Source of the DNA: Solirubrobacterales bacterium
GTDB taxonomy: Bacteria > Actinomycetota > Thermoleophilia > Solirubrobacterales > 70-9
Direction: 5' to 3'
Assembly: GCA_035688825.1 (NCBI GenBank)
Contig: DASSMM010000057.1
Coordinates: 2,830-66,829 of the forward strand
DNA: 64,000 nt
The notes beneath the pieces are model-generated. The model was not told the DNA's origin, made no database searches, and saw nothing but the letters and a program-made list of their open reading frames with translations. Position 1 is the stretch's first letter, and the number at the start of each line of letters is the position of its first letter. The translations under genes and the position numbers were made by a program. Shown piece after piece: positions 4,821 through 55,552 of this stretch.

Positions 4821-5660
4821 GTGCGGACCGTGCCTCTCGCCGACCGCTTCGACGGACTCCTGATCGATCTCGACGGGGTGGTCTGGATCGGTCGCGAGCC
4901 GGTGCCGGGCTCGGTGGAGGCGCTGCAAGCGCTGCTGGCGGCCGGCAAGCGGATCGTCTTCGTCACCAACAACCCGGGGCGGCTGCCGCAGGCCTACGCC
5001 GAGCGGCTGCGGGAGCTCGGGGTCGAGGTCGGCCCGGAGCAGATCGTCACCGCCGGGATGGCGGTGGCGCGGCTGGCCGGAGAGGCCGCGGCGGCGGCGG
5101 GCGAGGGCGGCAGCGCCTTCGTGATCGGCGCCGGGCCTCTAAAGGAGATGGTGGCGGCGACGGGGGCGCGGCTGCTGGAGGGAGAAGAGGCTGAGGCAGC
5201 CGACGTGGTCGTCGTCTCCGGCCACAGAGGCTTCGACTACGGCGAGCTGAAGACGGCGAAGTTCGCCCTCGACCGCGGCGCCCGGCTCTTCGCCACCAGC
5301 CACGACCCGACGATGCCCTACCCGGGCGGCGAGCTGCCGGGGACCGGCGCGGTCCTGGCGGCGATCGAAGTCGCTTCCGGCAAGGGGGCGACGATCGCCG
5401 GCAAGCCCGAGCGCCACCTGTTCGAGATGGCGATCGAGACGATCCGCGGTTCCTTTTGCACCGATGACGTGCAAAAGGAACCGGGCGATGGACGTTTGGC
5501 GATGATCGGCGACCGGATCAGCTCCGACATCGACGGGGGGCGAGCCGCCGGGCTGGAGACCGTCCTCGTCCTCAGCGGCACCACCACGCGCGAGCAGGCG
5601 GAAGCGGCCGACCCCGGCCCCGACCACGTGCTCGACGACCTCGCCGCCCTGCTGAAGTGA
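4821..5660 (+). CDS. HAD-superfamily subfamily IIA hydrolase (NagD-like phosphatase)
   Basis: DxDG motif (LLIDLDGVVW), VFVTNN, GKPE, GDRISSDIDGG..GLETVLVLSG. Contains an in-frame palindromic insert at 5448..5482. Confidence 0.85.
   Translation: MRTVPLADRFDGLLIDLDGVVWIGREPVPGSVEALQALLAAGKRIVFVTNNPGRLPQAYAERLRELGVEVGPEQIVTAGMAVARLAGEAAAAAGEGGSAFVIGAGPLKEMVAATGARLLEGEEAEAADVVVVSGHRGFDYGELKTAKFALDRGARLFATSHDPTMPYPGGELPGTGAVLAAIEVASGKGATIAGKPERHLFEMAIETIRGSFCTDDVQKEPGDGRLAMIGDRISSDIDGGRAAGLETVLVLSGTTTREQAEAADPGPDHVLDDLAALLK
5448..5482. repeat. 35-bp perfect hairpin (14-bp arms) embedded in the HAD hydrolase coding sequence
   Basis: GGTTCCTTTTGCAC-cgatgac-GTGCAAAAGGAACC read directly from the sequence. 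It translates in frame as part of RGSFCTDDVQKEPG. Confidence 0.9.
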
Positions 5661-6844
5661 GCGCCGGGGCGCGCGCCGACAGCCAGCATCGGCGGCCGGG
5701 GCTGAGCTTCGCCGGCGTCTTCGCCGTCACCTTCCTCGGCCTGATCGCGGTCGGCGCGGTGCTGCCGGTCCTACCCCGCTACATCCGCGGCCCGCTCGAC
5801 TCGACCGACCTCGCGGTCGGGGTGGTGATCGGCTCCTACGCGGTCACCGGACTGCTGCTGCGGCCGGTCGCCGGCCGCCTCGCCGACACCCGCGGGCGGC
5901 GGCCGACGGTGGTTGTCGGGGCGCTGCTGGTCTCGCTCAGCGGCCTCCTCTACCTCCCCCACCTCGGCCTCCCGGGCCTGGTCCTCGCCCGCCTCGTCCT
6001 CGGCGCCGGCGAGGGCGCCGTCTACACCGCCGGCTCGGCCTGGATCGTCGACATGGCGCCGCCTGCGCGGCGCGGCCGCATCCTCGGCCTCTACGGGCTC
6101 GCGGTCTGGGGCGGCCTCAGCGTCGGGCCGCTGCTCGGCGAGGTGCTGTTGCACGCCACCAGCTACTCGGTGGTCTGGATCTGCGCCGGGGTGTTGCCGC
6201 TACTGGGAGCGGCGATCGCGCTGCGCGTCCCCGATCCCTTCCAACCGCTGGCTCACGCCGAGCCGCACCCGCTGATCGCGCCGGAGGCCGTCCGGCCCGG
6301 TCTCGCCATCGCGCTAGCCTCGGTCGGCTACGCGACCCTCGCCGCCTTCATCGTCCTCCTGCTCGATTCCCGCGGCGTCGGCCACGGCGCCACCGTCTTC
6401 GCCGCCTTCGCGGCGATGATCGTGCTGGCACGGGTGCTCGCCGGCCACCTGCCCGACCGCTACGGCCCCGCCCCGGTTGCGATCGGCGCGGTCCTGATCG
6501 AGGCCGGCGGGCTCTTGCTGATCGCCGTCTCCCACAGCCTGCCGCTGGCGCTGATCGGCGGGATGGCGATGGGCGGCGGCTTCTCGCTGCTCAATCCCTC
6601 CCTGATGTTGATCGCGGTCGGCCGCGTCTCGCAGGAGGCACGGGGTGCGGCGATGGGCACCTACACCGCCTTCTTCGACGCCGGCGTCGGCATCGGCGCG
6701 CCGCTGGCCGGGCTGGCGGCGGCCCTGACCAGCTACGAGGGCGCCTTCGTCTTCGCCGCCGCGGTCGCCGTCGCCTCCGCCCTGCTGATCGCGGCAACCC
6801 TGCGACGCGAGCACCACCTGCCGCCCGGCGCTACCGCTCGCTGA
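5657..6844 (+). CDS. MFS transporter
   Basis: 395 aa, about 12 predicted TM helices. MFS loop motif GRLADTRGRRP between TM2 and TM3. The GTG start overlaps the upstream stop. Confidence 0.85.
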   Translation: MSAGARADSQHRRPGLSFAGVFAVTFLGLIAVGAVLPVLPRYIRGPLDSTDLAVGVVIGSYAVTGLLLRPVAGRLADTRGRRPTVVVGALLVSLSGLLYLPHLGLPGLVLARLVLGAGEGAVYTAGSAWIVDMAPPARRGRILGLYGLAVWGGLSVGPLLGEVLLHATSYSVVWICAGVLPLLGAAIALRVPDPFQPLAHAEPHPLIAPEAVRPGLAIALASVGYATLAAFIVLLLDSRGVGHGATVFAAFAAMIVLARVLAGHLPDRYGPAPVAIGAVLIEAGGLLLIAVSHSLPLALIGGMAMGGGFSLLNPSLMLIAVGRVSQEARGAAMGTYTAFFDAGVGIGAPLAGLAAALTSYEGAFVFAAAVAVASALLIAATLRREHHLPPGATAR

Positions 6845-7616
6845 TCAGGAGCGTCTGCAGCGCCCGGCCGATCCGGCCCTCGCCGTCGAAGAGGACCGAG
6901 TCGGAGCTGCCGACGCCGCTCGGCTGTGGCCGCGTCACCGCGTCGATGCCGATCCACTCCCCCGCCGGCATCCGCTCCAGCTGCACGGTCAGGTCGACGT
7001 TGATGAAGAGGAAGCGGCGGAAATCCAGCGAGGCGCTGACGCCGTTGCCGACGTCGGCGACGACGAGGGTGCGCTGCAGCGGCGTCGGCTCCTCGCCGGC
7101 GACGAGCGGCTGGCGCATCCGCAGCCAGACCGTCGCCGGGCCCGGCTCGAGGAAGTCGCCGGAGACGAAGCGGATCTCCATCGCCGAGTGGTAGCCGTGC
7201 TCCTGGCCGGTGGGGAAGAAGTTCGCGTCGCGCGCCTGCTCGGGAGGCGGGGGCGTCTCGGTGGCGACGAGCGCCGCGGCCGGCACCTCGACCTCCCCCC
7301 GGCGGATCCGCCAGGCCCGCGCCCGCATCAGCACCTCGCCCTCGGCGTCGCTCAGCTCCGCTTCCAGCATCTGCACCCGCCGCCCCGGCCGCGCCACCCT
7401 CGCCTCCACCCGCACCGGCGCGATCGGCACCGAGCGGAGGATCTCGAAGGTGACCCGCCCGACCTGGAACTCGGCCGCGTCCGGCAGCCCCTCGAGCGCG
7501 TAGCCGAGCAGCGCCGCCGGCGGCCCCGCATGCTGCGCCCCCGGGTCCCAGGGCCCCCGCGTCAGCTCGGTAGCGCGAAAGAGGTCACCATCGCGCTCGT
7601 AAAAAGCCTCGAACAC
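6831..7616 (-). CDS. acyl-CoA thioesterase-like (double hot-dog, TesB-type) protein
   Basis: 261 aa. N-terminal ...RATELTRGPWDPGAQHAGPPAALL... and C-terminal ...VADVGNGVSA...INVDLTV... resemble the thioesterase-like superfamily. GTG start at 7616. Confidence 0.75.
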   Translation of the reverse strand: MFEAFYERDGDLFRATELTRGPWDPGAQHAGPPAALLGYALEGLPDAAEFQVGRVTFEILRSVPIAPVRVEARVARPGRRVQMLEAELSDAEGEVLMRARAWRIRRGEVEVPAAALVATETPPPPEQARDANFFPTGQEHGYHSAMEIRFVSGDFLEPGPATVWLRMRQPLVAGEEPTPLQRTLVVADVGNGVSASLDFRRFLFINVDLTVQLERMPAGEWIGIDAVTRPQPSGVGSSDSVLFDGEGRIGRALQTLLISER

Positions 7617-7638
7617 GCGGGGATCGTACGTCCCACAC

Positions 7639-7687
7639 GAACTGCATCAACTTGACCACCCAGCAGATAGTCAAGTTGATGCAGTTC
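7639..7687 (-). terminator. perfect 18-bp inverted repeat directly after the CAP-domain gene stop (terminator or operator)
   Basis: GAACTGCATCAACTTGAC-13 nt-GTCAAGTTGATGCAGTTC. It begins 5 nt after the stop at 7692..7694. There is no clear T-tract, so a terminator role is only one option. Confidence 0.45.
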
Positions 7688-7691
7688 GGAA

Positions 7692-8204
7692 TCAGCACCG
7701 GTGGCTGCCGAACTCCTGGGTCCAGACGTGGGCGCCGCCGTAGCCTTCGAGCCTGCCGGTCTGCAGGCCGATGCCCGTCTGTTCGTAGGGGCCGAGGATG
7801 TTTTCCCGGTGGCCCGGCGACTTCATCCAGGCCTTGAAGATCGAGCGCGGGGTTCCCAGGCCGCCGCTCCCCCAGGCGATGTTCTCGCCCGCGCTGCAGC
7901 CCTGGTAGCCGAAGCGAGTCATCCAGAAGGTGAATTCGCGGCCGCAGGCTTCGTGGCTGAATTCGTTGCAGCGGAGGATGTCGCGGGACTTGTGGTCGGC
8001 GGCCTTGATCAGCGAGCGCACGGCGGTCAGCGGGGGGAGACCGCGTGTGGTCCGGGCGTGGTTGACGAGGCAGAGCATCGCCCGCTCCTGCGTCTCGAAG
8101 GGAGCTTTGCCCTGGTCCTGGTTATGGCAGGCCTGGGCCGCGCTCGGCAGGCCGAGCAACCCCGCCACCAGGAGGAGGCCGACGATCGTGCTTCTTCTCG
8201 TCAC
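7692..8204 (-). CDS. secreted CAP/SCP (YkwD-like) domain protein
   Basis: Only the C-terminal 170 aa of track ORF 7692..8573 look real. GTG at 8204 gives the signal peptide VTRRSTIVGLLLVAGLLGLPSAAQA, followed by the CAP-domain pattern LVNHARTTRGLPPL...GENIAWG...AWMKSPGHRENIL. Confidence 0.8.
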   Translation of the reverse strand: MTRRSTIVGLLLVAGLLGLPSAAQACHNQDQGKAPFETQERAMLCLVNHARTTRGLPPLTAVRSLIKAADHKSRDILRCNEFSHEACGREFTFWMTRFGYQGCSAGENIAWGSGGLGTPRSIFKAWMKSPGHRENILGPYEQTGIGLQTGRLEGYGGAHVWTQEFGSHRC

Positions 8205-8255
8205 GGGCTCGTAATACCCGAGGCGTACTCTCTTAACAAGAGAGAAAGGAACGAA

Positions 8256-8654
8256 ATGGCGACGAAAGTTCAGAAAAGCGAGCAGGAGTGGCGCGAGCAG
8301 CTCACGCCCGAGCAGTTCGAGGTCACCCGCAAGGCCGGCACCGAGCGTGCCTTCACCGGCCCCTACTGGGACGAGAAGGCGGAGGGGATGTACCGCTGCG
8401 TCTGCTGCGGGACCGAGCTCTTCTCCTCGGACACGAAGTTCGACTCGGGCACCGGCTGGCCCAGCTTCACCGAGCCGGCCAACCTCGAGCACGTCGAGCT
8501 GCGGCCGGACAACAGTCTCTTCATGCGGCGGACCGAGGTCGTCTGCAAGCACTGCGACGCCCACCTCGGCCACGTCTTCGACGACGGCCCGGCCGACAAA
8601 GGCGGCCAGCGCTACTGCATCAACGGCTGCGCCTTGACGCTGGAGAAGAAATAA
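8256..8654 (+). CDS. msrB: peptide-methionine (R)-S-oxide reductase
   Basis: ATG at 8256 preceded by AGAGAAAGGA. FTGPYWDEKAEGMYRCVCCGTELFSSDTKFDSGTGWPSF...VVCKHCDAHLGHVFDDGP is the SelR/MsrB signature with two CxxC pairs. Confidence 0.95.
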   Translation: MATKVQKSEQEWREQLTPEQFEVTRKAGTERAFTGPYWDEKAEGMYRCVCCGTELFSSDTKFDSGTGWPSFTEPANLEHVELRPDNSLFMRRTEVVCKHCDAHLGHVFDDGPADKGGQRYCINGCALTLEKK

Positions 8655-8659
8655 CCGGC

Positions 8660-8702
8660 GACGGGACGAAAACGGGCCTATATAGACCGAAATCGTCCCG
8701 TC
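8660..8702. repeat. 43-bp palindromic element, intergenic copy (same family as 54327..54369)
   Basis: GACGGGACGAAAACGGGCCTATATAGACCGAAATCGTCCCGTC lies between the convergent msrB and response-regulator genes. Its reverse complement matches 54327..54369 at about 34 of 43 positions by hand alignment, with conserved 14-15-nt termini. Confidence 0.85.
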
Positions 8703-8711
8703 GGCAGGCGG

Positions 8712-9368
8712 TTAAAGGGCGCCGCCGCCGGCGCCGAGGTAGCTGAAGCGCACGGCCAGCGCCACCGCCTCGGTGCGGGTGTCGACCTCGAGCTTGGCGA
8801 TCGCGTTGCGCACGTGGGTGTGCACGGTCGCCGGGCTCAGCTGCAGCCGGTCGGCGATTTCTTTCACCCGCAGGCCCTCGGCCAGCAGCTCGAGGATCTG
8901 CCGCTCGCGCGGCGAGAGGTCGAGCAGTTTCTCGACCTCGGACGGCTTGCCGCCGGCGAAGTCGCCGCCGAGGAAGGTGCCGCCCTGGGTCACCGCTTTG
9001 ACCGCCTTGGCGATGTCCTCCGCCGGCGCCGACTTCAGCACGTAGCCGGAGGCGCCGGCGCGCAGGGCGAGCGCCAGCAGGTCCGGCTGGGCGTGGGCGG
9101 TGAAGATGATCACTTTCGTCCGCGGCCGGACTTTGAGGACCTCCTTGGTCGCCTCGATGCCGTCGCGCTTGGGCAGCTCGACGTCGATGATGAGGACGTC
9201 CGGTTCCAGTTCCTTGACGACCTCGACGACGTCGCGGCCGTTGCCCGCCTCGCCGACGATTTCGACGATGCTCGAGTTCATCATCCGCGCTTTGATCGCG
9301 TCGCGGACGATCTCGTGGTCGTCGCAGAGCACGACGCGTTTCGCTTCTCGCACGCCGGTGCCCATCAC
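8712..9368 (-). CDS. two-component response regulator, NarL/LuxR family
   Basis: Receiver domain (VVLCDDHEIV...LIIDVELPKRDG...FTAH) plus LuxR HTH (LSPRERQILELLAEGLRVKEIADRLQLSPATVHTHVRNAIAKL). Confidence 0.9.
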   Translation of the reverse strand: MMGTGVREAKRVVLCDDHEIVRDAIKARMMNSSIVEIVGEAGNGRDVVEVVKELEPDVLIIDVELPKRDGIEATKEVLKVRPRTKVIIFTAHAQPDLLALALRAGASGYVLKSAPAEDIAKAVKAVTQGGTFLGGDFAGGKPSEVEKLLDLSPRERQILELLAEGLRVKEIADRLQLSPATVHTHVRNAIAKLEVDTRTEAVALAVRFSYLGAGGGAL

Positions 9369-9387: not shown

Positions 9388-10659
9388 TCATCGCGCCGCG
9401 ATTCTTTCAGGCGCTCCGTACCGATGCAAAGTTTTGGGTAGCGTGAAACTGCCGTCGCTCTCCTGGCGGTTCTCGATCAGGGCGATGATCGTGCGCCCGA
9501 CGGCGCAGGCGGTGCCGTTCAGCGTGTGGACCGCCTGCGGTGCCGCGCCCTCCTCGGGGCGGTAGCGGGCGCCGATGCGGCGAGCCTGGAAGTCGGTGGT
9601 GTTCGAGCAGGAGGTGAGCTCGCGGAACCGGCCCTGGCTCGGGATCCACGCCTCGCAGTCGTACTTCTTCGCCGCCGGCGCGCCGAGGTCGCCGACGGCG
9701 ACGTTGACGACCCGGTAGGGGATCTCCAACTCGCCGAGGATCCGCTCCTCGATCGAGAGCAGCCGCTCGTGCTCCTGCTTCGAGGTGCCGGGCTCGACGA
9801 ACGAGAACATCTCGACCTTGTCGAACTGGTGGACCCGGAAGATGCCGCGGGTGTCGCGGCCGGCGGCGCCAGCCTCGCGGCGGAAGCAGGTCGAGAAGGC
9901 GCAGTAGCGCAGCGGCAGCTCGGCGGCGTCGAGGATCTCGCCGGCGTGGAGACCGGCGAGGGCGACCTCGGAGGTGCCGGTGAGGAAGAGCTCGTCCTTG
10001 GGAATCTCGTAGATCTGGTCGCGCGCCTCGGGCAGGAAGCCGGTTCCCTCCAGCGCCTCTTCGCGGACCAGCACCGGCGGCACCACCGGCTCGTGGCCCT
10101 CGCCGCGGACGAGGTCGATGACGAAGCGGACCAGCGCCAGCTCGAGCAGGACCAGGTCGCCCTTCAGGTAGGCGAAGCGCGAGCCGGAGAGCTCGGCCGC
10201 CTTCTCCATCTCGATCAGGCCGAGCTCGGTGCCGATCTCGAGGTGGTCGCGCGGCTCGAAGTCGAACTGCGGGCGCTCGCCGACCTCGCGGATCACGACT
10301 GCGTCCTCCTCGGTCATCCCTTCCGGCGCGTCGGGATCGGGGATGTTGGGAAGCGTCAGCGCCAGCTCTCCCAGCTTGGCGCCCACCTCCTCCAGCTCCT
10401 CTTTCGCCGACTCGACCCGCTCCTTCAGCCCCTGCACGGTCGCCATCAGCTCCTCGGCGTCTTCGCCGGCCTGCTTGCGTTCGCCGATCTGCTTGGAGAG
10501 CGTCTTGCGCTCGGCCTGCGCGTTCTCGACCTCCGGCAGCAGCTCGCGCCGGCGGGCGTCCAGGGCCAGCAGCTCGTCGACCTGCTCAGCCGCGCCCCGC
10601 CGCGCCAGCGCGGCCTTGACCCGCTCGGGGTCGGAGCGGATCGCTTTCAGGTCCAGCAT
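9388..10659 (-). CDS. serS: serine--tRNA ligase
   Basis: 423 aa. N-terminal coiled-coil arm MLDLKAIRSDPERVKAALARRG, and class II motifs (FRVHQFDKVEMF, CSNTTDFQARR, HTLNGTACAVGRTIIAL). Confidence 0.97.
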   Translation of the reverse strand: MLDLKAIRSDPERVKAALARRGAAEQVDELLALDARRRELLPEVENAQAERKTLSKQIGERKQAGEDAEELMATVQGLKERVESAKEELEEVGAKLGELALTLPNIPDPDAPEGMTEEDAVVIREVGERPQFDFEPRDHLEIGTELGLIEMEKAAELSGSRFAYLKGDLVLLELALVRFVIDLVRGEGHEPVVPPVLVREEALEGTGFLPEARDQIYEIPKDELFLTGTSEVALAGLHAGEILDAAELPLRYCAFSTCFRREAGAAGRDTRGIFRVHQFDKVEMFSFVEPGTSKQEHERLLSIEERILGELEIPYRVVNVAVGDLGAPAAKKYDCEAWIPSQGRFRELTSCSNTTDFQARRIGARYRPEEGAAPQAVHTLNGTACAVGRTIIALIENRQESDGSFTLPKTLHRYGAPERIAAR

Positions 10660-11586: not shown

Positions 11587-12014
11587 AGCCCGCTGGTCCC
11601 CGCCGCGCGCAGCGCGAGGAAGAAGATGACGCCGCAGCTGACGGCCATGATGCCCATCTCGCGGCGGACTATGGCGAGGGCCAGGGCTTCCTGGTCGGCT
11701 TGGGGGAGGTTCTCGTAGTCGGTTTCGCCGACCTCGCGGCTGGCGGCGTCGGCTCGGGCGCCCTCGGCGATGAAGGAGACGAGGAGAGGGAGGATGCCGT
11801 AGAGGTAGTGGAGACCGTCCTCGGGCTCGTGGTTGGTGACGACGAGGAGGCCGCCGAGGAGAGCCTGGATGAAGACCGAGACCTGGGCCGCCCTCAGCAG
11901 GTACCAGAAGGAGACCGAGGGCCGATCGCGGTACCAGGCGATGCCGCCGACCAGGCCCGCGGCCGCATTTAGCGCGATCAGCGTCACCCCGACGGCGATG
12001 TGGAGCCCGACCAC
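11583..12014 (-). CDS. hypothetical integral membrane protein (4 TM)
   Basis: 143 aa with hydrophobic helices and GC3-rich codon usage consistent with coding. No family recognised. Confidence 0.55.
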   Translation of the reverse strand: MVGLHIAVGVTLIALNAAAGLVGGIAWYRDRPSVSFWYLLRAAQVSVFIQALLGGLLVVTNHEPEDGLHYLYGILPLLVSFIAEGARADAASREVGETDYENLPQADQEALALAIVRREMGIMAVSCGVIFFLALRAAGTSGL

Positions 12015-12552: not shown

Positions 12553-13241
12553 AGCGCCGCTCCCTGCGCGAGAAACAAGTCCGGGCCCGCGACATGCTCC
12601 GCGGCGACCTCGAGGGCGAAGACCTCGAGCGCTACGTCGAAGAACGCGTCGTCACCACGACCTTCGAGAAAGTCCAGAACTGGGCCCGCGCCAACTCGAT
12701 CTTCCCGCTCACCTTCGGCCTCGCCTGCTGCGCGATCGAGGCGCCGATCTCGATCGTCACCGCCCGCTACGACCTCGCCCGGTTCGGCGCCGAGGCGCTG
12801 CGGGCCTCGCCGCGCCAGGCCGACCTGATCATCCTCTCGGGCCGGGTCAGCATCAAAATGGCACCCGTCGTCCGCCGCCTCTACGACCAGATGCTGGAGC
12901 CGAAGTGGGTGATGGCGATGGGCGCCTGCTCCTCCTCGGCGGGGATGTTCGCCAACTACGCCGTCGTCCAGGGCGCCGACAAGTTCATGCCGGTCGACAT
13001 CTACGTGCCCGGCTGCCCGCCGCGGCCGGAGGCGGTCCTCTACGGCTTCACCAAGCTGCAGCGGAAAATCATGGGCAACCCCGACCAGAGCTGGCGGCGG
13101 CGCTACGACGCCTACGGCACCGAGGAGTGGGCGCGCGGCGGCCCCCGCTCGGAACCGAGCCCGGAGGCGGCGAAGGCCTACGAGGAAGCGCGGACCTCGG
13201 TCGAAGCGCTGCGCGAAGCCGGGGAGCCCTCCCTTGCCTGA
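12543..13241 (+). CDS. nuoB: NADH-quinone oxidoreductase subunit B
   Basis: [20 protein letters not shown] and VPGCPPRPE provide the N2 cluster cysteines. Start uncertain (TTG 12543 or ATG 12594). About 45-aa C-terminal extension. Confidence 0.93.
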
Positions 13242-13839
13242 CGCTCCCGGACTCGAGCTGATCCGGGGGGAAATCGACCGCGACTGCCCCGGCGCCGTGC
13301 TCGCCACCTCCTTCGACCGCGCCCAGGCGGCGCTGGTCGTCGACCCCGAGCGGGTGCTCGAGGTGCTGCGCTGGCTCGCCGAGCAGCCCGGCCAGCGCTA
13401 CGACTTCCTCTCCTCGCTGCACGCCGCCGACTACCTGCCGGCTCAACCCCGCTTCGCGGTCCACTACGAGCTCATCAATCGCAATCGGGTCGAGCGCCTC
13501 CGAGTCAAAGCGATGCTCGAAGACGCTCCTCCCGCGGGTGGCGCGGATTTGGGGGACCGCCCCCCGCCAGTTGCGGGGGGTGGTGGAACCAAATCGGCGA
13601 CAGGACCCGCGGGCCTACCGCATGGTCTCCCCGAGATCGACTCCTGCGTCGAGCTCTTCCCCACCGCCGACGCCCAGGAGCGCGAAGTCTTCGACTTCTT
13701 CGGGATCGTCTTCCGCGGCCACCCCAACCTGACCCGGATCCTGATGCCCGACGACTACGTCGGCTGGCCGCAGCGCCGCGACTTCCCGATCGGCGGCGAG
13801 CCGGTCACCTTCACCTACTCGGAGCAGCGCTATGACTGA
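13234..13839 (+). CDS. nuoC: NADH-quinone oxidoreductase subunit C (with ~33-aa internal insert)
   Basis: [20 protein letters not shown]...[37 protein letters not shown]. The insert [34 protein letters not shown] coincides with the palindrome 13531..13613. Confidence 0.93.
13531..13613. repeat. ~83-bp imperfect palindromic element inside nuoC
   Basis: CCCGCGGGTGGCGCGGATTTGGGGGACCGCCCCCCGC-cagtt-GCGGGGGGTGGTGGAACCAAATCGGCGACAGGACCCGCGGG. The terminal 9 nt and the central 11 nt are complementary. Confidence 0.8.
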
Positions 13840-15043
13840 GCAGATCGCCGTCCCCTTCGAGCAGGCGCCCGATCTCGACCGCGAGATCATGACGATCAAC
13901 ATCGGGCCGCACCACCCGGCGACCCACGGCGTCCTCCGCCTCGTCGTCGACCTCGAAGGCGAGATGGTGCGCGAGCTGCGGCCGGTGATCGGCTACGTCC
14001 ACACCGGGATCGAAAAGTCCTGCGAGGACAAGAGCTACTGGAAGGTCATCCCCTTCGTCGAGCGGATGGACTACGTCTCCTACTTCTTCCAGATGGAGGC
14101 CTTCTGCGGCGCGGTCGAGCGGCTGATCGACCTCGAGATCCCGCCGCGGGCGAAGTACCTGCGCACGCTCTTCCTCGAGCTCAACCGGATCCACTCCCAC
14201 CTCGTCTGGCTCGGCACCACGGCACTCGACCTCGGCGCGATCTCGATGCTCTGGTACTGCTTCCGCGAGCGCGACAAGATCCTCGACCTCTTCGAGATGG
14301 CGACCGGCCAGCGGATGCACACGCGCTACTTCCAGGTCGGCGGCGTGATCGAGGACATCCCGCTCGGCTTCGAGGCCAAGTGCCGCGCCTTCGCCGAGGA
14401 AATGCCGATCCGGGTCGGCCAGTACGAAGACCTGCTCGACCGCAACGAGGTCTTCCTCTCGCGGACCAAAGGGACCGGGATCGTCTCGCGGGAGCGCCTG
14501 CTCGAGCTCGGCGTGACCGGGCCGCTGCTGCGCGCCGCCGGCGACCCCTGGGACCTGCGCAAAGCCTTCGACTACCTCGCCTACCCCGAGCTCGACTTCA
14601 AGATCCCGGTCGGGACTGTCGGCGACAACTACGACCGCTACCGGGTGCGGGTGGCGGAGATGGTCGAGTCGGCGCGGATCGTCGCCCAGTGCCTCGACGC
14701 CCTGCCCGAGGGACCGTTCATCGCCGACGACCGCAAGTACGTGCTGCCGCCGCGCTCGGAGCTCTCGACTTCCATGGAGAGCCTGATCCACCACTTCAAG
14801 CTCGTCACCGAGGGCTACCGGGTGGCGCCCGGCGAGGTCTATTACTCGATCGAGGGACCGCGCGGCGAGCTCGGCTGCTTCGTCCTCGCCGACGGCTCGG
14901 CGAAGCCCGCCCGGGTGCACTTCCGCGACCCCTCCTTCGTCAACCTGCAGGCCTTCCGCGAGATGGCGGTCGGCGGCTACGTCGCCGACATGATCGCCAG
15001 CCTCGGCATGCTCGACCCGATCCTCGGAGGTGTCGACCGATGA
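13832..15043 (+). CDS. nuoD: NADH-quinone oxidoreductase subunit D
   Basis: 403 aa. INIGPHHPATHGVLRL, ERMDYVS, MLDPILGGVDR. Confidence 0.97.
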   Translation: MTEQIAVPFEQAPDLDREIMTINIGPHHPATHGVLRLVVDLEGEMVRELRPVIGYVHTGIEKSCEDKSYWKVIPFVERMDYVSYFFQMEAFCGAVERLIDLEIPPRAKYLRTLFLELNRIHSHLVWLGTTALDLGAISMLWYCFRERDKILDLFEMATGQRMHTRYFQVGGVIEDIPLGFEAKCRAFAEEMPIRVGQYEDLLDRNEVFLSRTKGTGIVSRERLLELGVTGPLLRAAGDPWDLRKAFDYLAYPELDFKIPVGTVGDNYDRYRVRVAEMVESARIVAQCLDALPEGPFIADDRKYVLPPRSELSTSMESLIHHFKLVTEGYRVAPGEVYYSIEGPRGELGCFVLADGSAKPARVHFRDPSFVNLQAFREMAVGGYVADMIASLGMLDPILGGVDR

Positions 15044-20574: not shown

Positions 20575-21125
20575 GCGTCGACTCCCGCAGCGCCTCCTAC
20601 CTCGACTCGATCGACGTCGTCGAGGTCCAGCGCGGCCCAGAGCCGGGCGGTCTCGGCGGCACCTGGCGAGCCTTCGGTGAGACCCTGCGGGGGCTGAAGA
20701 CGACGATGGCGCGGCTGGTCGAGGGGCCGATGACGATCGAGTACCCCGAGGAGAAGACGCCGGTCTACCCGCGCTTCCGCGGCCGCCACAAACTCCACAA
20801 GTTCGAGGACACCGGCCTCGAGAAATGCGTCGGCTGCTCGCTCTGCGCCGCCGCCTGCCCGGCCGACTGCATCCGTGTCGTCGCCGCCGAGAACATCCCC
20901 GGCGAGCGGGTCTCGGCGGGCGAGCGCTACGCCGCCGTCTACGAGATCAACCTCAGCCGCTGCATCTTCTGCGGCTACTGCGAGATCGCCTGTCCCTTCG
21001 ACGCGATCACGATGGGCCACGACTACGAGATGGCCGACTACGACCGCCGCGACCTGATCTTCACCAAGGAGATGCTGCTGGCGGAGCCGGTCGAGCGGAC
21101 GCCGCTGAAAAGCGAGGGCGAATAG
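20571..21125 (+). CDS. nuoI: NADH-quinone oxidoreductase subunit I
   Basis: GTG 20571 overlaps the nuoH stop (GTGA). Two 4Fe-4S motifs, CVGCSLCAAACP and CIFCGYCEIACP. Confidence 0.93.
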   Translation: MSVDSRSASYLDSIDVVEVQRGPEPGGLGGTWRAFGETLRGLKTTMARLVEGPMTIEYPEEKTPVYPRFRGRHKLHKFEDTGLEKCVGCSLCAAACPADCIRVVAAENIPGERVSAGERYAAVYEINLSRCIFCGYCEIACPFDAITMGHDYEMADYDRRDLIFTKEMLLAEPVERTPLKSEGE

Positions 21126-34640: not shown

Positions 34641-34673
34641 CGGGCGGGCCGGTGGGTGGCACCGGCCCGCCCT
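34641..34673 (+). terminator. GC-rich hairpin after the sulfotransferase gene
   Basis: CGGGCGGGCCGGTG-ggtgg-CACCGGCCCGCCC, 6 nt after the stop. Could act bidirectionally for the convergent mini-ORF. Confidence 0.55.
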
Positions 34674-36305: not shown

Positions 36306-36306
36306 A

Positions 36307-39435: not shown

Positions 39436-39533
39436 TGGTCCTCGCCCGCCGCGAGCTCAACCGCTGGTCCAAGCGCGCCGAGGCCGAAGCCGAAGGCAAC
39501 CTGGAGCCCCGGCACGCGGCGCGGATGGTCTGA
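39436..39533 (+). pseudogene. displaced 3' remnant of the acyl-CoA dehydrogenase gene (direct repeat copy 2)
   Basis: Encodes ...VLARRELNRWSKRAEAEAEGNLEPRHAARMV*, identical in protein sequence to the last 32 codons of 36307..37569. It has no upstream gene body. Confidence 0.85.
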
Positions 39534-40128: not shown

Positions 40129-40195
40129 CGATCTAATCTGGAAAGAAGAGGAGGGCCGGAGTCCGGCCCTCCTCTTACAAATTGCCCGTCCCGAC

Positions 40196-43392: not shown

Positions 43393-43757
43393 TGGCGACG
43401 ATCCTGGTCGCGGACGACTCGGAGACGATCCTGCTGCTGATGCGGACGCGGCTGGAGATGGCCGGCCACACGGTCCTCACCGCCGCCGACGGCCAGGAGG
43501 TGCTCGACGCGGTCGCCGGCAACGGCCTGCCGGACCTGCTCCTGCTCGACGCGATGATGCCCCGCAAATCCGGCATCGACGCCCTGCGCGAGCTGCGCGG
43601 CGACGGCCACGACGTCCCGGTCCTGATCGTCAGCGCCCACCAGAACCCGGGCGACGCCGACGCCCCCACCGATCTCGCGATCGACGGCTACATCACCAAG
43701 CCGATCGACTTCGACCGCCTCCTGGAGACGATCGCCGCGCTGACCGCGCGAACCTAG
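43392..43757 (+). CDS. single-domain response regulator (receiver only)
   Basis: ILVADDSE...LLLLDAMMPRKSGIDAL...YITKP. ATG overlaps the kinase stop. Confidence 0.9.
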   Translation: MATILVADDSETILLLMRTRLEMAGHTVLTAADGQEVLDAVAGNGLPDLLLLDAMMPRKSGIDALRELRGDGHDVPVLIVSAHQNPGDADAPTDLAIDGYITKPIDFDRLLETIAALTART

Positions 43758-45865: not shown

Positions 45866-45909
45866 CTCCCCTTCCATACCCCGAGCCGTCACATCGACTC
45901 GGTAAGCGC

Positions 45910-47388
45910 TCAGCTCTTGGCGATCTCGAGGCGGATTTCCTTGCCCTTGAGCTTGGTGCCGTCGAGGAACTCGACGGTGCGCTCGGCCTGGTCGGGGTCG
46001 ACCTCGACGAAGGAGAAGCGATGGAGGACGCGGACGTCGTGGACGGCCTCGTCGGGCAGGACCGCGCCCTCGCGCAGAGCCCAGCGCAGGTCCTCCTCGT
46101 CGATGCCGCTGCGCTCGCCGCGGTTGACGAAGAGCTTGACGGTCTTCCCCTTCGCCTCCTCGGAGTCGCCGCCGTCGCCGTTGCCGGCCGCGGGCGCCTG
46201 CTCGCGCTCGCGGCGCTCTTTGCGCTCCCCCCGCTCGCGCTCGCGCCGGCGCGGCCGCGGCGCGTGTTCGAGCCGCTCCTCGGGGCTCTCCCACTCGCCG
46301 ATCGAGGTCTTGACGTCGCGCTCGATGCGGGCGATCTCGTCGCGCTGGTCGGGGGTGACGAAGGTGATCGCGCGCCCGGTCCGCCCGACCCGGCCGGTGC
46401 GGCCGATCCGGTGCACGTAGGTCTCCGAGGAGTTCGGCACGTCGAAGTTGATGACGTGGGTGACGTGCTCGACGTCGAGCCCGCGGGCGGCGATGTCGGT
46501 CGCCACCAGCAGCCGCACGCGGTGGTCCTTGAAGGAGATCATCACCCCGTCGCGGACGCCCTGGCTGAGGTCGCCGTGCAACGCCTTCACGTCGAGGCCT
46601 TTGTCCTTCAGCGTCTTCTCCAGCTTCGAGGCGCCGATTTTGGTCCGGGTGAAGATGATCGCCTGCTCGGGTTCTTCGGTCTTCAGCAGCTCGACCAGGC
46701 GGGAGGCCTTCTCCTTGGCGGGAACCTCGACGAAGGCCTGGGAGATCTTGTCGACCGTCAACTGTTTCGGGGTGATTTTGATCGTCACCGGGTCGTACAT
46801 GTAGCCCTCGGCGAGCTTCTGGATCGGCGGCGGCATCGTCGCCGAGAAGAGCGCCGTCTGGCGCCCGCTCGGGCACATCCGCAGGATCTTCTCGACGTCC
46901 TCGATGAAGCCGAGGTCGAGCATCTCGTCGGCCTCGTCGAGGACGACGTAGCGGGCGGCGGTGAGGACGAGCGAGCGCCGCGACATCAGGTCCTTCATCC
47001 GTCCCACGGTGGCGACGACGACGTGGGCGCCGGAGCGAAGCTGCGACTGCTGCGAGCGGATCGGGGCGCCGCCGAAGACCGCGACTATCTCGATGTCGAG
47101 GTGCTCGGCGAAGGTGCGCAGCGCCTGGGTCACCTGGATGCAGAGCTCGCGGGTCGGGGTGAGGACGATCGCCTGCACCTCGTCGTTGGCGGGATCGAGG
47201 TACTGCAGCAGCGGCAGCCCGAAGGCGGCGGTCTTGCCGGTCCCGGTCTGCGCCTGGCCGATCACGTCGTGGCCGCCGAGCAGCTCCGGGATCGCCTGCT
47301 CCTGGATCGGCGTCGGCTCCTCGAAGCCGAGCTCGTCCAACGCCTGCTGGATGTCAGGCGAGAGTCCTAGGTCTTTGAATGCGGTCAC
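45910..47388 (-). CDS. DEAD-box ATP-dependent RNA helicase with DbpA-type C-terminal RNA-binding domain
   Basis: Q-motif FKDLGL..PTPIQ, AQTGTGKTAAF, DEADEML, SAT, HRIGRTGRVG. GTG start. Confidence 0.95.
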   Translation of the reverse strand: MTAFKDLGLSPDIQQALDELGFEEPTPIQEQAIPELLGGHDVIGQAQTGTGKTAAFGLPLLQYLDPANDEVQAIVLTPTRELCIQVTQALRTFAEHLDIEIVAVFGGAPIRSQQSQLRSGAHVVVATVGRMKDLMSRRSLVLTAARYVVLDEADEMLDLGFIEDVEKILRMCPSGRQTALFSATMPPPIQKLAEGYMYDPVTIKITPKQLTVDKISQAFVEVPAKEKASRLVELLKTEEPEQAIIFTRTKIGASKLEKTLKDKGLDVKALHGDLSQGVRDGVMISFKDHRVRLLVATDIAARGLDVEHVTHVINFDVPNSSETYVHRIGRTGRVGRTGRAITFVTPDQRDEIARIERDVKTSIGEWESPEERLEHAPRPRRRERERGERKERREREQAPAAGNGDGGDSEEAKGKTVKLFVNRGERSGIDEEDLRWALREGAVLPDEAVHDVRVLHRFSFVEVDPDQAERTVEFLDGTKLKGKEIRLEIAKS

Positions 47389-49392: not shown

Positions 49393-50811
49393 ATGGCCGC
49401 CGAGCAGCAGACGCAGGACCCGACCGCCGAGAACGCCAACGCCTCCTCTGGCTCCGGCAACAGCGGCAAGGACTCGCTGACGGTCACCGACAACCGCACC
49501 GGCAAGACCTACGAGCTGCCGATCTCCGACGGCACGGTGCGGGCGATGGACCTGCGCCAGATCAAAGTCGACGAGGACGAATTCGGGATGCTGGCCTACG
49601 ACCCGGCCTTCACCAACACCGCCTCCTGCCGCTCCTCGGTCACCTACATCGACGGCGCCGCCGGCATCCTCGAACACCGCGGCTACCCGATCGAGCAGCT
49701 CTGCGAGAAATCGACCTTCCTCGAGGTCGCCTACCTGCTGATCTTCGGCGAGCTGCCGACCGAGGCCCAGCTCGAGCGCTGGGTCTTCGACATCACCCAC
49801 CACACCTTCGTCCACGAGGACCTCAAGCACTTCTTCGAGGGCTTCCGCTACGACGCCCACCCGATGGGGATGCTGCTCTCCGGGGTCGGCGCGCTCTCGA
49901 CCTTCTACCCGGACGCGAAGCAGATCGGCGACCCCGAAGAGCGCTACATGGCCGCGGTGCGGCTGATCGCCAAGGTGCCGACCCTCGCCGCCTTCTCCTA
50001 CCGGCACAACATGGGCCTGCCCTACGTCTATCCGGACAACGAGCTCTCCTACGCCCAGAACTTCCTCTCGATGATGTTCAAGAAGACCGAGGACCGGCAC
50101 ATCCCCAAGGAGGCGCTGACGAAAGTCCTCGACGTCCTCTTCATCCTCCACGCCGACCACGAACAGAACTGCTCGACCAACGCGGTCCGCGGCGTCGGCT
50201 CCTCCGACGTCGACCCGTACTCGGCGGTCGCGGCGGGGGTGGCGGCGCTCTATGGGCCGCTGCACGGCGGCGCCAACGAGGCGGTGCTGCGGATGCTGCG
50301 GCGGATCGAGTCGCCGGAGAACATCCCCGACTTCCTCGAGCGGGTGAAGCAGCGCGAGGAGAAACTGATGGGCTTCGGCCACCGCGTCTACAAGAACTAC
50401 GACCCACGGGCGCGGATCATCCAGCAGTACATCGAGCCGGTCTTCGAGGCGACCGAGTACAGCCCGCTGGTCGAGATCGCGCGCGAGCTGGAGAAACGGG
50501 CGCTCGACGACGAGTACTTCACCGAGCGCAAGCTCTACCCGAACGTCGACTTCTACTCGGGGATCATCTACGAGGCGATGGGGATCCCGACCGAGATGTT
50601 CACGGTCATCTTCGCCATCCCCCGCACCGCCGGCTGGGTGGCCCAGTGGATGGAGATGCAGGAAGACCCGGAGAAGAAAATCGCCCGCCCCCGGCAGATC
50701 TACACCGGCGAGCGGGAACTCGACTACGTCTCGATCGAGCAGCGCAAAGGGCCGGAGAAAATCGTCGGCCCGCCGGCGCGGCGGCCTAAACGGCCTCGGC
50801 GCGGGGCTTAG
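49393..50811 (+). CDS. gltA: citrate synthase (type II)
   Basis: ATG 49393 preceded by AAGGAGGGGG. GILEHRGYPIEQL, LFILHADHEQNCST, GFGHRVYKNYDPRA. The 1139-aa track ORF is mostly shadow frame. Confidence 0.96.
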   Translation: MAAEQQTQDPTAENANASSGSGNSGKDSLTVTDNRTGKTYELPISDGTVRAMDLRQIKVDEDEFGMLAYDPAFTNTASCRSSVTYIDGAAGILEHRGYPIEQLCEKSTFLEVAYLLIFGELPTEAQLERWVFDITHHTFVHEDLKHFFEGFRYDAHPMGMLLSGVGALSTFYPDAKQIGDPEERYMAAVRLIAKVPTLAAFSYRHNMGLPYVYPDNELSYAQNFLSMMFKKTEDRHIPKEALTKVLDVLFILHADHEQNCSTNAVRGVGSSDVDPYSAVAAGVAALYGPLHGGANEAVLRMLRRIESPENIPDFLERVKQREEKLMGFGHRVYKNYDPRARIIQQYIEPVFEATEYSPLVEIARELEKRALDDEYFTERKLYPNVDFYSGIIYEAMGIPTEMFTVIFAIPRTAGWVAQWMEMQEDPEKKIARPRQIYTGERELDYVSIEQRKGPEKIVGPPARRPKRPRRGA

Positions 50812-50955
50812 AACCTCAGGCGGGCTTGTTGGGGGAGGGACGGGTGCCCCTCTCCCAGAGACCGTCGCGCAGCTGGACGTAGTGCTGGGCGCCATTGTGA
50901 TCTCTGGAGCCTCTGGGAGAGGGGCACCCGTCCCCCTGCCATCGCCTAGGGTTCT
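50810..50955. repeat. 146-bp MITE-like palindromic element between gltA and the next operon
   Basis: Outer arms AGAACCTCAGGCG / CGCCTAGGGTTCT and inner arms GGGGGAGGGACGGGTGCCCCTCTCCCAGAG / CTCTGGGAGAGGGGCACCCGTCCCCC around a 50-nt centre. It starts at the gltA stop codon and ends 3 nt before the next start. Confidence 0.8.
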
Positions 50956-53063: not shown

Positions 53064-53113
53064 CAGCTACCCGGCCAGGGAATGAAGTCGCGAAAGGGTA
53101 CCGCCGGCCGCTG

Positions 53114-53787: not shown

Positions 53788-53801
53788 GTCATAGAGGTTA
53801 G

Positions 53802-55460
53802 TCAGGGGTCGATCAGGACGCCCGGGTTGAGCATCCCTGCAGGATCGAGATCGGCCTTGGCGGCGCGGAGGGCGGCGGCGAAGGGGGCGGGGCGCTGGCG
53901 GTCGTACCAGGGGCGATGGTCGCGGCCGACCGCGTGGTGGTGGGTGATCGTGCCGCCGGCGTCGATGATCGCCTCCGAGACGGCGGCCTTGATCTCGTCC
54001 CACTGCTCGACCTCGCCGCCACGGATCGCCGGCGCCAGGACGGTGAAGTAGGGAGCGACGCCGTCGGGATAGACGTGGGTGAAGCGGCAGCTGACCCGCG
54101 GCGCCCCCGGCCCGTCGGCGGGAGCGCCGCTGACCTCCGCGGTCACCCGCCGCGCCGTCTCCATCACAGTCGCGTGGAAGTCCTCGAAGCGGCCCCAGGT
54201 GATCGCCGTCTCGAACGTCTCCGAGAGCACCCCGCAGGCGACGAAGGTGTCCCGCAGATACGGAGCGAGCAGAAACGCCCCCCTCCAAGCATCGACCGCC
54301 CCATCGTCCTTGCCTTCCTCCCCGCCGACGGGCCGATTTCGTCCCGTATCGGGACGTTTTCGTCCCGTCAGCGCGGAAGTGCGGGGCTCGCCGGGGATGC
54401 CGGCGTGCGCTTGGGCTACCTGAAGCGCTTGGGCCATCGGGACGTCGACTGGTAGCTGTGCCGACTCGAAGCCGAGGAGTAGGAGGTGGCTGCTGCCGTC
54501 GCCGGCGCCGGTGAGGCCGGCCTCGTCCGCGTCGAGGAGGCGGCAGTTGGCGGGATGGAGGCCGGATTGAGAGATCTCGCAGACCGCTTCGACCGCCTTG
54601 TCGAAGTCGCTGAACCCGACGCTGACCGATGCCTTGAACTCGGGCCGCGGACGCACCCGCACCCAGGCCTCGGCGATCACGCCGAGGATCCCCTCCGAGC
54701 CGATCAGCATCCGGTCCGGCGACGGCCCCGCACCCGAGCCGGGAAGCCGCCGGCTCTCCCAGGTCCCCCGCGGGGTGATCGCCCGCACCGACTCGACCAG
54801 GTCGTCGATGTGGGTCTCGAGCGTCGCGAAGTGGCCGCCGGCGCGGGTAGCGATCCAGCCGCCCAGGGTCGAGTACTCGAACGACTGCGGGAAGTGCCGC
54901 AGCGTCAACCCGCGCTCGCGCAGCTGGTCCTCGAGGCCGGGCCCGAGGGCGCCGGCCTGGATCCGCGCCGCCAGCGAAGTCGGGTCCACCTCCAGCACCC
55001 GGTCCAGCCGCCGCAGGTCCAGCGAGACCACCGCCCGCTCCCCAAGCCGCGGCTCGATCCCGCCGACCACGCTCGTCCCGCCCCCGAACGGCACCACCGC
55101 CGCGCCCTCGGCCTCCGCCCAGCTCAGCACCGCCTCGATCTCCGACTCGTCCTTCGGGAAGGCGACGAGGTCCGGCGGGTTCTCGAACTTCCCGTAGAAG
55201 CCGCGGACCACATCCCGGTACGCCTTCCCCAACGAGTGCGCCACCCGCTCGTAGTGCCCATCCGAGAACAGGTCCCCGAACGCCTGCGGCCGCTTCAACC
55301 GAGCCGCCCGCAGCTCCACCGCCTCCAGAGGGACCGGCTTCTCCACCTCACCCCCGAACCCGAACCGCGCCCGAATCCCTTCCGCAGCCTCCCTTAGCTG
55401 AGTAGCCGTGGGCGCCTGATCCTCGTACCCCCAACCCCAATGCTTCAGCCGACGGTTCAT
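53802..55460 (-). CDS. FAD-linked oxidase (PCMH-type FAD-binding, alkyl-DHAP-synthase/GlcD-like)
   Basis: 552 aa. AAVVPFGGGTSVVGG, C-terminal HHHAVGRDH. Contains the 43-bp palindromic element in frame. Confidence 0.9.
   Translation of the reverse strand: MNRRLKHWGWGYEDQAPTATQLREAAEGIRARFGFGGEVEKPVPLEAVELRAARLKRPQAFGDLFSDGHYERVAHSLGKAYRDVVRGFYGKFENPPDLVAFPKDESEIEAVLSWAEAEGAAVVPFGGGTSVVGGIEPRLGERAVVSLDLRRLDRVLEVDPTSLAARIQAGALGPGLEDQLRERGLTLRHFPQSFEYSTLGGWIATRAGGHFATLETHIDDLVESVRAITPRGTWESRRLPGSGAGPSPDRMLIGSEGILGVIAEAWVRVRPRPEFKASVSVGFSDFDKAVEAVCEISQSGLHPANCRLLDADEAGLTGAGDGSSHLLLLGFESAQLPVDVPMAQALQVAQAHAGIPGEPRTSALTGRKRPDTGRNRPVGGEEGKDDGAVDAWRGAFLLAPYLRDTFVACGVLSETFETAITWGRFEDFHATVMETARRVTAEVSGAPADGPGAPRVSCRFTHVYPDGVAPYFTVLAPAIRGGEVEQWDEIKAAVSEAIIDAGGTITHHHAVGRDHRPWYDRQRPAPFAAALRAAKADLDPAGMLNPGVLIDP
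54327..54369. repeat. 43-bp palindromic element, intragenic copy inside the FAD-linked oxidase gene
   Basis: GACGGGCCGATTTCGTCCCGTATCGGGACGTTTTCGTCCCGTC. Translated on the minus strand as part of LTGRKRPDTGRNRPVGG. Same length and termini as 8660..8702. Confidence 0.85.
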
Positions 55461-55461
55461 A

Positions 55462-55552
55462 GGAGGACGGGGACCCCCTCCGACCGGCGGATACTCAAAA
55501 CGCCGGCCTAATTAGGCCGGCGTTTGTTGGGCGGAGGGGGTCCCCGTCCTCC
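55462..55552. repeat. 91-bp nested palindrome between the FAR-like and FAD-oxidase genes
   Basis: Outer perfect 21-bp arms GGAGGACGGGGACCCCCTCCG / CGGAGGGGGTCCCCGTCCTCC enclose the inner 28-bp perfect palindrome at 55498..55525. Confidence 0.9.
55498..55525 (-). terminator. rho-independent terminator of the FAR-like gene
   Basis: AAACGCCGGCCTAA/TTAGGCCGGCGTTT. On the minus strand the stem is followed by TTTTGAG. Confidence 0.65.

Follow-up and report, generated by a model that had tools for sequence, protein, structure and literature searches.

Families of small in-frame hairpin elements in conserved genes of a Solirubrobacterales bacterium

Introduction

The survival of selfish palindromes in frame inside essential genes is usually regarded as peculiar to Rickettsia, apart from scattered cases in other organisms. 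The Rickettsia palindromic elements (RPEs) comprise several palindromic families that lie in frame in housekeeping genes (Ogata et al. 2000, summarised in PMC10969869, PMC3733652), and intragenic in-frame copies have been documented both for RPEs and for repetitive extragenic palindromic (REP) sequences (PMC3733652, PMC10969869), with intragenic REPs reported for Opitutus terrae, Thauera and R. conorii (PMC3733652). This study concerns hairpin-forming elements in a 64,000-nucleotide stretch of DNA, referred to here as the window, from a Solirubrobacterales bacterium (GenBank assembly GCA_035688825.1, contig DASSMM010000057.1, positions 2,830–66,829 of the forward strand). The window has a G+C content of around 70% and carries a complete nuoA–N operon on its plus strand as well as genes for a HAD-IIA hydrolase, an FAD-linked oxidase, a citrate synthase and an OdhA-like protein; its NuoC is up to 92% identical to proteins of metagenome-assembled genomes labelled Solirubrobacterales, which identifies the source as an uncultured bacterium of this order (Thermoleophilia, Actinomycetota). 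A first-pass annotation of this DNA had proposed that the HAD, nuoC, nuoJ and FAD-oxidase genes each contain a hairpin that is translated in frame, that similar hairpins stand in intergenic DNA, and that these elements represent one or several undescribed, coding-tolerant families resembling RPEs, REPs or MITEs (miniature transposable elements with inverted repeats). Here, the elements of the window are compared with those of related DNA.

Materials and methods

The stability of the hairpins was assessed by folding each as a single strand together with 200 dinucleotide-preserving shuffles, and secondly by a 90-nt sliding fold scan of the entire window. The related DNA comprised about 200 loci (2.1 Mb in all, individual loci being given numbers prefixed with L), including 80 genome loci centred on nuoC; copies of family 1 were counted in the window plus these 80 loci (1.36 Mb). 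A metagenome sample of family 1 was obtained by an exact-match scan of contigs containing both termini, which gave at least 120 loci. Domains were identified by a Pfam scan of ten window proteins. The position of the NuoC insert was judged by sequence alignment to solved structures (Thermus thermophilus Nqo5); an AlphaFold2 model of NuoC from a 30-sequence alignment had a mean predicted local distance difference test score of 39, and the insert could not be placed on the surface with it. Genic and intergenic calls for the metagenomic copies were attempted from the periodicity of G+C at third codon positions, several versions of which mostly returned 'unclear', and only the conservative estimate given below was kept. 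RGWRGGG… peptides that appeared in an early version were antisense frames of acidic proteins and were discarded as spurious. A neighbour-joining tree of NuoD, considered for counting gains and losses, had a depth of at most 0.06 and was too conserved to resolve the clade.

Results

Hairpin elements of the window

The lineage probably carries several families of small, non-autonomous hairpin repeats of the kind represented by REPs, REP doublets forming hairpins (REPINs) and RPEs. At least four multi-copy families occur among the elements of the window; members of each family stand at unrelated loci, one contig may hold identical copies, and the orthologous sites in relatives are found empty, filled, filled in the opposite orientation or reduced to a deletion footprint. 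When loci were typed at the nuoC, HAD and nuoJ sites, six of the eight filled/empty combinations occurred, and the three sites have thus changed state independently of one another. An assembly artefact is an unlikely source of the filled alleles, because they recur in many independent assemblies.

All seven hairpins of the first-pass annotation were recovered at or near their reported positions; the list was incomplete, an eighth element at 57892–57972 in the OdhA-like gene having been missed. The seven and one further element, folded singly, gave z scores of −4.3 to −10.6, and none of the 200 shuffles was as stable in any case. In the sliding scan the four strongest outliers lay at 55461, 21601, 50841 and 13531 (regression z of −7.1 to −4.3), and in an inverted-repeat search of the window the pairs at 50830–50941, 21628–21691 and 55462–55552 ranked first, second and fourth in length. 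All four intragenic elements (HAD, nuoC, nuoJ and FAD oxidase) are read through in frame without stop codons, which, with the z scores, confirms the first claim of the annotation. Its description of the added loops as rich in Gly, Pro and Arg fails for the HAD insert (GSFCTDDVQKEP). Rfam 15, searched over the whole window at the gathering score, gave no matches.

An explanation of the inserts as ordinary variable loops or low-complexity tails, with coincidental self-complementarity, can hardly be credited. They do stand at positions that vary in length across bacteria, such as the NuoJ tail and the NuoC loop, and one insert in the NuoG of the window, described below, is not palindromic; however, the fold z scores, the presence of the same DNA families in intergenic DNA and in unrelated genes, and the systematic compensation of the stems refute it. 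Elements of this trivial kind would have been single-copy and their residues universal among orthologues, and the opposite was found: the elements are multi-copy and none of the four intragenic inserts is universal, as the counts for each site show. These multi-copy families and polymorphic sites support the proposal that several families of coding-tolerant, REP-, MITE- or RPE-like elements are present.

Family 1 in nuoC and the OdhA-like gene

Family 1 is delimited by the termini CCGCGGGTGGC…ACAGGACCCGCGG and occurs in length classes of 69, 78, 81, 90 and 93 nt; a terminus-pattern search yielded 52 true copies. Its terminal inverted repeats (CCCGCGGGT / ACCCGCGGG) are conserved and form the outer stem of the single three-tier hairpin into which nearly all inserts at the nuoC site fold. 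Variant termini covary as inverted repeats, and double compensatory changes were found by RNAalifold at 10 of 19 consensus pairs, with conserved bulges and G–T pairs being retained. Comparison of the two strands, designated A and B, gave the better fold for A in 163 of 193 copies. A conserved flank, CGCCTCTC, is present on one side of the element only, and the opposite orientation places a Shine–Dalgarno-like GAGAGGCG after the hairpin. The motif GTAG is found inside the 78-, 81- and 90-nt classes (…CGTAGGGGGG…) and not in the 69-nt class. In 77% of copies the length is divisible by three, and in 95% neither strand has a stop codon in the PAG register, which is the one that genes use; this length bias and open register suggest that such families are well suited to coding DNA.

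No sign of a target-site duplication was seen, direct repeats of at least 8 nt flanking 2.7% of family 1 copies compared with 1.7% when partners were shuffled, and the flanks contain no extended inverted repeat beyond chance. The terminal CCGCGG was considered as a palindromic target-site duplication and rejected, the variants CGGCGGG…CCCGCCG covarying as inverted and not as direct repeats. In L057, L058 and L068 (around 10268–10400) the nuoC palindrome extends about 10 bp further outwards, as AGCGATCCnGCCGCGGG…CCCGCGGCnGGATCGCT, and the boundary of the element therefore differs between lineages.

A covariance model of the family identified exactly two copies in the window. The first, an 81-nt element in A orientation on the plus strand (13521–13613 including the 5′ flank GACGCTCCTC; z = −4.3 for 13531–13613), lies in frame in nuoC (13234–13839), encodes 28 residues and scores 74 bits (E about 1e-12); in alignment with T. 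thermophilus Nqo5, the protein shows about 28 extra residues exactly at the palindrome. The second, also of the 81-nt class (57892–57972, A strand on the minus strand; 78 bits, E about 3e-13), lies in frame in an OdhA-like E2/E1 fusion gene (about 57630–61661, plus strand), where it has B orientation relative to the gene and encodes AGPADAGDPPSPATAQETVPPTTSPTAG in the linker joining the lipoyl domain to the E3-binding domain. The same linker site is occupied in relatives by a copy of the 69-nt class (L084) and by one of the 78-nt class (L119). At 4630–5064 of L084, two inverted family 1 copies bracket about 300 nt of the OdhA-like gene, and the segment between them apparently encodes an extra lipoyl-type segment (…VVSMPEMGE…), which raises repeat-mediated domain duplication as a question.

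The nuoC site provides the most detailed record of turnover. Thirty NuoC orthologues are near-invariant outside the insert and contain several unrelated-looking types of peptide inside it, two of them having no insert at all. Among the 80 genome loci the site is empty in about 30 (…ADPGEEELPEIDSC…) and carries inserts of 70–150 nt in about 40; around 24 copies have the A and around 17 the B orientation, and the two orientations give rise to two peptide series, PAGG…TGPAG and PAGPV…PPAG. Deletion footprints are left at three loci. The first, L081, whose NuoC is 93% identical to that of the window and which is fully syntenic with window positions 3195–23687, has both flanks of the filled allele around a single CCCGCGGG, which is a clean deletion between the terminal repeats. 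In L082 both termini are partially kept and the interior is gone, in L017 one terminus is partially kept, and L021 has the ancestral sequence of the empty site.

Family 1 is also found in frame in the N-terminal tail of NuoD, and in the nuoD–nuoE spacer, where it is not frame-locked and where all eight copies have the B orientation. Under relaxed matching, the loci from soil metagenomes contain about 150 copies (at least 150). A coding signal in the same frame on both sides is clear in only about 6–8% of them, most of the copies lying at gene ends or in unclear sequence, i.e. not clearly within genes; the in-frame copies are thus a surviving minority and not the rule. Neighbouring copies less than 500 nt apart share one inverted arrangement in 15 of 16 pairs. 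Among pairs of equal length on the same contig, seven of 19 are at least 93% identical in their interior, 93% being the 95th percentile between contigs; identical pairs occur in L009 and L084, and the pair in L084 consists of one intergenic and one intragenic copy.

Family 2 at the NuoJ terminus and in NuoG

The second family is represented in the window by the hairpin at 21628–21691 (plus strand, z = −9.3), which has perfect 26-bp arms (GGCGGAGGGGGAGGCCCCCTCCAAAC) and a 12-nt loop and forms the in-frame C-terminal tail of NuoJ (gene at about 21122–21703); directly after it, the nuoJ stop codon overlaps the nuoK start codon as ATGA. NuoJ homologues can be aligned up to an ARR motif, and the palindrome encodes the tail that follows. 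Two kinds of NuoJ end occur among 48 loci, a short one (…ARRREEAS*) and one that is 15–50 residues longer; about 33 of the 48 are filled, and every long tail corresponds to a DNA hairpin with a stem of about 20–30 bp. The arms are species-specific but compensated, and the apical cores are recognisable. Cores of this family are also found in frame at two NuoG sites of relatives, in both orientations, with three copies in L073.

Two inserts in nuoG are described here as separate observations. At 19007–19118 the window has 84 nt more than L081, at a hot-spot termed G2 (…GIRWQD…LGTYRDLW) that carries family 2 palindromes in relatives; the insert in the window is not palindromic and may be a decayed element. 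The nuoG of L081 contains a 42-nt insert at 14675–14716.

The form of family 2, shared by the element at 55462 described below, is that of a conserved core with arms that differ by species or locus and are complementary within each copy. This form could also be expected if long arms arose or grew in place at short inverted repeats, by template switching (quasi-palindrome correction) or cruciform-associated repair, so that many elements would be local mutational products and paired changes single events rather than selected compensation. The small GAGG..CCTC hairpin that the empty NuoJ end already holds is consistent with such a process, as is the lack of a target-site duplication, and inversion between 9-bp outer arms could give both orientations at one site. 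It leaves unexplained, however, the presence of the same cores and family 1 termini at unrelated loci and the identical copies within contigs, and correction should have erased the conserved bulges and G–T pairs of family 1. As a full account we consider it highly improbable; template switching is best seen as shaping the arms and not as the origin of the families, which we continue to regard as dispersed repeats.

Family 3 and family A

The HAD-IIA hydrolase gene (4821–5660), in which the Pfam domains Hydrolase_6 and Hydrolase_like were identified, contains the family 3 hairpin GGTTCCTTTTGCAC-cgatgac-GTGCAAAAGGAACC at 5448–5482 (plus strand, z = −7.1), within a 36-nt in-frame insert that is richer in A+T than its surroundings and encodes the peptide given above. 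An insert of 12–13 residues is present at this site in 24 of 58 orthologues (e.g. GSFxxxxxxKEP and CSFxxxxxxKEQ), and the codons of the stem covary as C..Q, S..E, R..R and V..T. Hairpins of the same type occur in the N-terminal region of nuoD in L024 and L045.

Family A has one intergenic and one intragenic member in the window. The former (8655–8708, plus strand, z = −4.6) lies between a converging msrB-like gene that ends at 8654 and a response-regulator gene (8712–9368, minus strand), has an outer stem GCGACGGGACGA / TCGTCCCGTCGGC with a variable inner part, and has syntenic copies in L008 and L081. The latter (approximately 54313–54374, minus strand, z = −6.7) is in frame in the FAD-linked oxidase gene (53802–55460, minus strand), has a GGGGAGGAAGG tail and encodes LTGRKRPDTGRNRPVGGEEGK. 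The two are homologous, as had been noted in the annotation, and have in common GACGGGACGAAAACG … CGAAATCGNCCCGTCGGC and an outer stem GCCGACGGGNCGAAA / TTTCGNCCCGTCGGC. About 19 members of family A were found in the 2.1 Mb of related DNA; the outer stem is conserved, the inner stems covary, and the members end in CCCGTCGGC, often with a GGGAGG tail. The FAD-oxidase site is filled in two cases and empty in one, L119 holding a different family A copy and L084 being empty.

Elements in spacers and the case for an RNA function

The composite element at 55462–55552 (no strand assigned, z = −10.6) fills the spacer between the stop codon of a reductase/SDR gene (55557) and the start of the FAD-oxidase gene (55460). 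Its outer arms of 24 nt (GGAGGACGGGGACCCCCTCCGACC) surround a conserved core, GGATACTCAAAACGCCGGCCTAATTAGGCCGGCGTTT, which folds as a terminator-like perfect hairpin, and a simple terminator scan did not flag the core hairpin at 55497–55524. The core (GGATACTCAAAAyGCCGGCCTAATTAGGCCGGC…) occurs at three other loci, namely in L202 and at the nuoD–nuoE junction of L081 and L049, and the outer arms are different in each copy and complementary within each. The corresponding spacer before the FAD-oxidase gene holds different palindromic elements in L084 and L119, one of them belonging to family 1. L081 also has palindromic insertions without a counterpart in the window at 11718–11837 (nuoD–nuoE, with the 55462-type core) and at 17304–17358 (nuoH–nuoI junction).

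The longest inverted repeat, at 50830–50941 (no strand assigned, z = −6.7), has 31-nt arms that are 90% complementary around a 50-nt non-palindromic spacer and begins 19 nt past the stop codon (50809–50811) of a citrate synthase gene identified by its domain in the Pfam scan. The intergenic hairpins of the annotation were thus confirmed as structures at 8660, 50830 and 55462; the element at 50830 had no detectable relative in the 2.1 Mb of related DNA.

The placement of many copies exactly at cistron boundaries (nuoJ/nuoK, nuoC/nuoD, nuoD/nuoE and, in L081, nuoH/nuoI, as well as the reductase/FAD-oxidase spacer) suggests a rival view in which the hairpins would be RNA elements that the host selects in its polycistronic mRNAs. 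They would stabilise cistron boundaries, serve as processing sites or modulate translational coupling, and selection on RNA structure would keep them in place, so that they would not be selfish mobile DNA. The covarying stems would agree with this, as would the better folding of the A strand of family 1 and the GGAGG-like tail that follows the hairpin in families 1 and A; the orientation with this Shine–Dalgarno-like tail is followed by the next start codon in all eight nuoD–nuoE copies and in the L084 copy upstream of the FAD oxidase. The elements are nevertheless dispensable, since close relatives with flanks that are 86–93% identical lack them or retain only deletion footprints. A strand-specific RNA function does not predict both orientations at the same intragenic site, nor does it account for identical sequence families at many unrelated loci. 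G–U pairs make up about 5% of the pairs in family 2 compared with about 10% in random windows, and this rarity, with the perfect Watson–Crick arms of the family, suggests that the elements are maintained as DNA; Rfam gave no match. We therefore consider an RNA function improbable as the general explanation. Some copies may still have been co-opted, as REP sequences are known to have been.

Discussion

The data show that the elements are dispersed, that copies within a genome can be identical, that sites are polymorphic and can carry footprints, and that inverted doublets are common and target-site duplications lacking. If the elements are non-autonomous repeats of the REP, REPIN or RPE kind, as we think probable, their spread would involve a hairpin intermediate of single-stranded DNA that an enzyme acting in trans moves or, alternatively, recombination between copies with gene conversion. 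The copies inside genes would then be survivors of purifying selection, and an insertion would persist only when it adds a number of bases divisible by three, introduces no stop codon into the register used and stands at a permissive position. Such positions would include the NuoC loop, the NuoD N-terminal tail, the NuoJ C-terminal tail, the OdhA inter-domain linker and the variable loops of the HAD and FAD-oxidase proteins, and the translated outcome would be additional loops or tails rich in Gly, Pro, Ala and Ser. The GGAGG-like tail beside the hairpin in families 1 and A could make insertion between packed cistrons tolerable, the ribosome-binding site of the next gene being kept.

Several points weigh against this explanation. 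No transposase gene, including one for a REP-associated tyrosine transposase (RAYT), was found in the Pfam scan of the ten window proteins, and a search of six-frame open reading frames from the 2.1 Mb for a Y1/IS200-type gene gave no hit, although this was a weak test that used an IS608 TnpA sequence and the HUH/Y motif. The density of family 1 can be put only roughly, at about one copy per 25–30 kb. BLAST of the 50830 element against the 2.1 Mb returned no relatives. The conserved core and variable outer arms of family 2 and the 55462 type are the reverse of a classical transposon, whose termini are conserved, and growth of a palindrome in place agrees with this architecture no less than transposition does. 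Where a site is occupied repeatedly, a single old insertion may have undergone inversion and gene conversion in place, with no repeated insertion. The cistron-junction positions and Shine–Dalgarno-like tails would also agree with a function in host RNA. Such an RNA role at junctions and maintenance of the arms by template switching are possible contributors; alone, they do not explain the dispersal.

A reading that joins these processes can be put forward tentatively, and we consider it unlikely in this complete form. Instead of being passengers that are only tolerated, the elements would be hairpin-plus-Shine–Dalgarno modules used at cistron boundaries by a lineage with compact genomes, with arms kept by a DNA-level process such as template switching or cruciform repair, including in-place inversion; the NuoC, NuoG, NuoJ and OdhA sites would be hot-spots at which peptide loops are swapped between length classes and orientations, and the bias to lengths divisible by three and the register open on both strands would be the adaptation of the element to life inside genes.

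With non-autonomous hairpin repeats as the preferred reading, these data add a free-living, high-G+C, small-genome clade of soil actinobacteria, abundant in soil metagenomes, to the known hosts, and one with several such families. The comparative evidence is unusually clear: sites are seen empty, filled or with a deletion footprint, and one and the same site may hold either orientation and more than one length class. The elements add lineage-specific loops to subunits of complex I and 2-oxoglutarate dehydrogenase and may confound the alignment of orthologues and the annotation of genes. They also offer a natural experiment on how hairpin repeats stay complementary, on how proteins tolerate inserted peptides and on whether a Y1-type transposase moves such repeats in Actinomycetota.

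Other features of the window

Two copies of a 96-nt direct repeat (37472–37567 and 39436–39531, 99% identical), which duplicate the 3′ end of a gene ending at 37569, bracket a 1.9-kb segment of lower G+C content (around 60%) with an open reading frame at 37743–39272 that has a weak match to glycosyl hydrolase family 26; the segment has the appearance of an insertion with duplication of the target. At 7638–7688, an inverted repeat of 19 bp with perfect arms (CGAACTGCATCAACTTGAC) is richer in A+T than its surroundings and adjoins a CAP-domain gene (7692–8573, minus strand); L081, although otherwise syntenic, lacks a segment of about 550 nt containing it. Two more perfect hairpins rich in G+C, with 13–14-bp stems, occur at 40146–40175 (GAGGAGGGCCGG…CCGGCCCTCCTC) and, directly after a stop codon, at 34641–34672 (GGGCGGGCCGGTG…CACCGGCCCGCCC); these are terminator-like or may be further repeat elements. 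Direct repeats with a period of 27 nt, rich in GGxGxD-like codons, occupy 44180–45620 within a minus-strand open reading frame (43754–46876), and the repeat pattern suggests an RTX or calcium-binding repeat protein.

Comparison with known repeat systems

Mycobacterial interspersed repetitive units (MIRUs) are actinobacterial repeats that lie between the cistrons of operons, with reading frames joined to the flanking stop and start codons, and the present copies at the nuoJ/nuoK and nuoD/nuoE junctions with Shine–Dalgarno-like tails resemble them. MIRUs are, however, tandem direct repeats of 40–100 bp and not hairpins, and they are not known to occur inside conserved protein domains.

As in the RPEs, several short palindromic families are found in frame at permissive positions of conserved genes, whose products gain a stretch of peptide, and the same families have intergenic copies too. 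The hosts are very different, a free-living soil actinobacterium with 70% G+C as opposed to an obligate intracellular alphaproteobacterium; the present elements are shorter (36–95 nt compared with about 100–150 nt), one site can carry different length classes and both orientations across species, and most copies of family 1 in an unselected sample are not clearly intragenic. The resemblance is one of behaviour and not of family membership, homology being unlikely given the host and base composition.

With REPs and REPINs (Bertels and Rainey 2011, PMC3116915; Di Nocera et al. 2013, PMC3733652), the elements share imperfect hairpins of tens of bases with complementary arms, many dispersed copies that are mostly near gene ends, occasional intragenic in-frame copies, frequent inverted doublets (15 of 16 close pairs) and the lack of a target-site duplication. 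They differ in that no RAYT gene was found (in the weak test of 2.1 Mb) and no GTAG or CGTC tag could be assigned with confidence, and a single REP is smaller than the family 1 unit, which measures 69–93 nt and has conserved bulges and three stacked stems. PMC3733652 makes no mention of Actinobacteria.

MITEs of the DDE type (e.g. Correia, ERIC and Nezha; PMC10969869) are likewise small, non-autonomous and multi-copy and can form in-frame fusions with host open reading frames, and family 1 has conserved terminal inverted repeats as they do. In contrast to MITEs, family 1 shows no target-site duplication, family 2 and the 55462 type have variable termini and a conserved core, and no parent insertion sequence with matching ends was seen.

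A literature search in a limited library returned nothing relevant on such elements in Solirubrobacterales or Actinobacteria, and the REPIN–RAYT literature retrieved does not mention Actinobacteria, which agrees with the earlier remark that no description from a high-G+C actinobacterial lineage was known. The elements thus belong to a known kind for which, within that library, no earlier report from this lineage was found. Their unusual features are the replacement of one length class or orientation by another at a given site, the architecture of a conserved core with variable arms, and the bias towards lengths that are a multiple of three.

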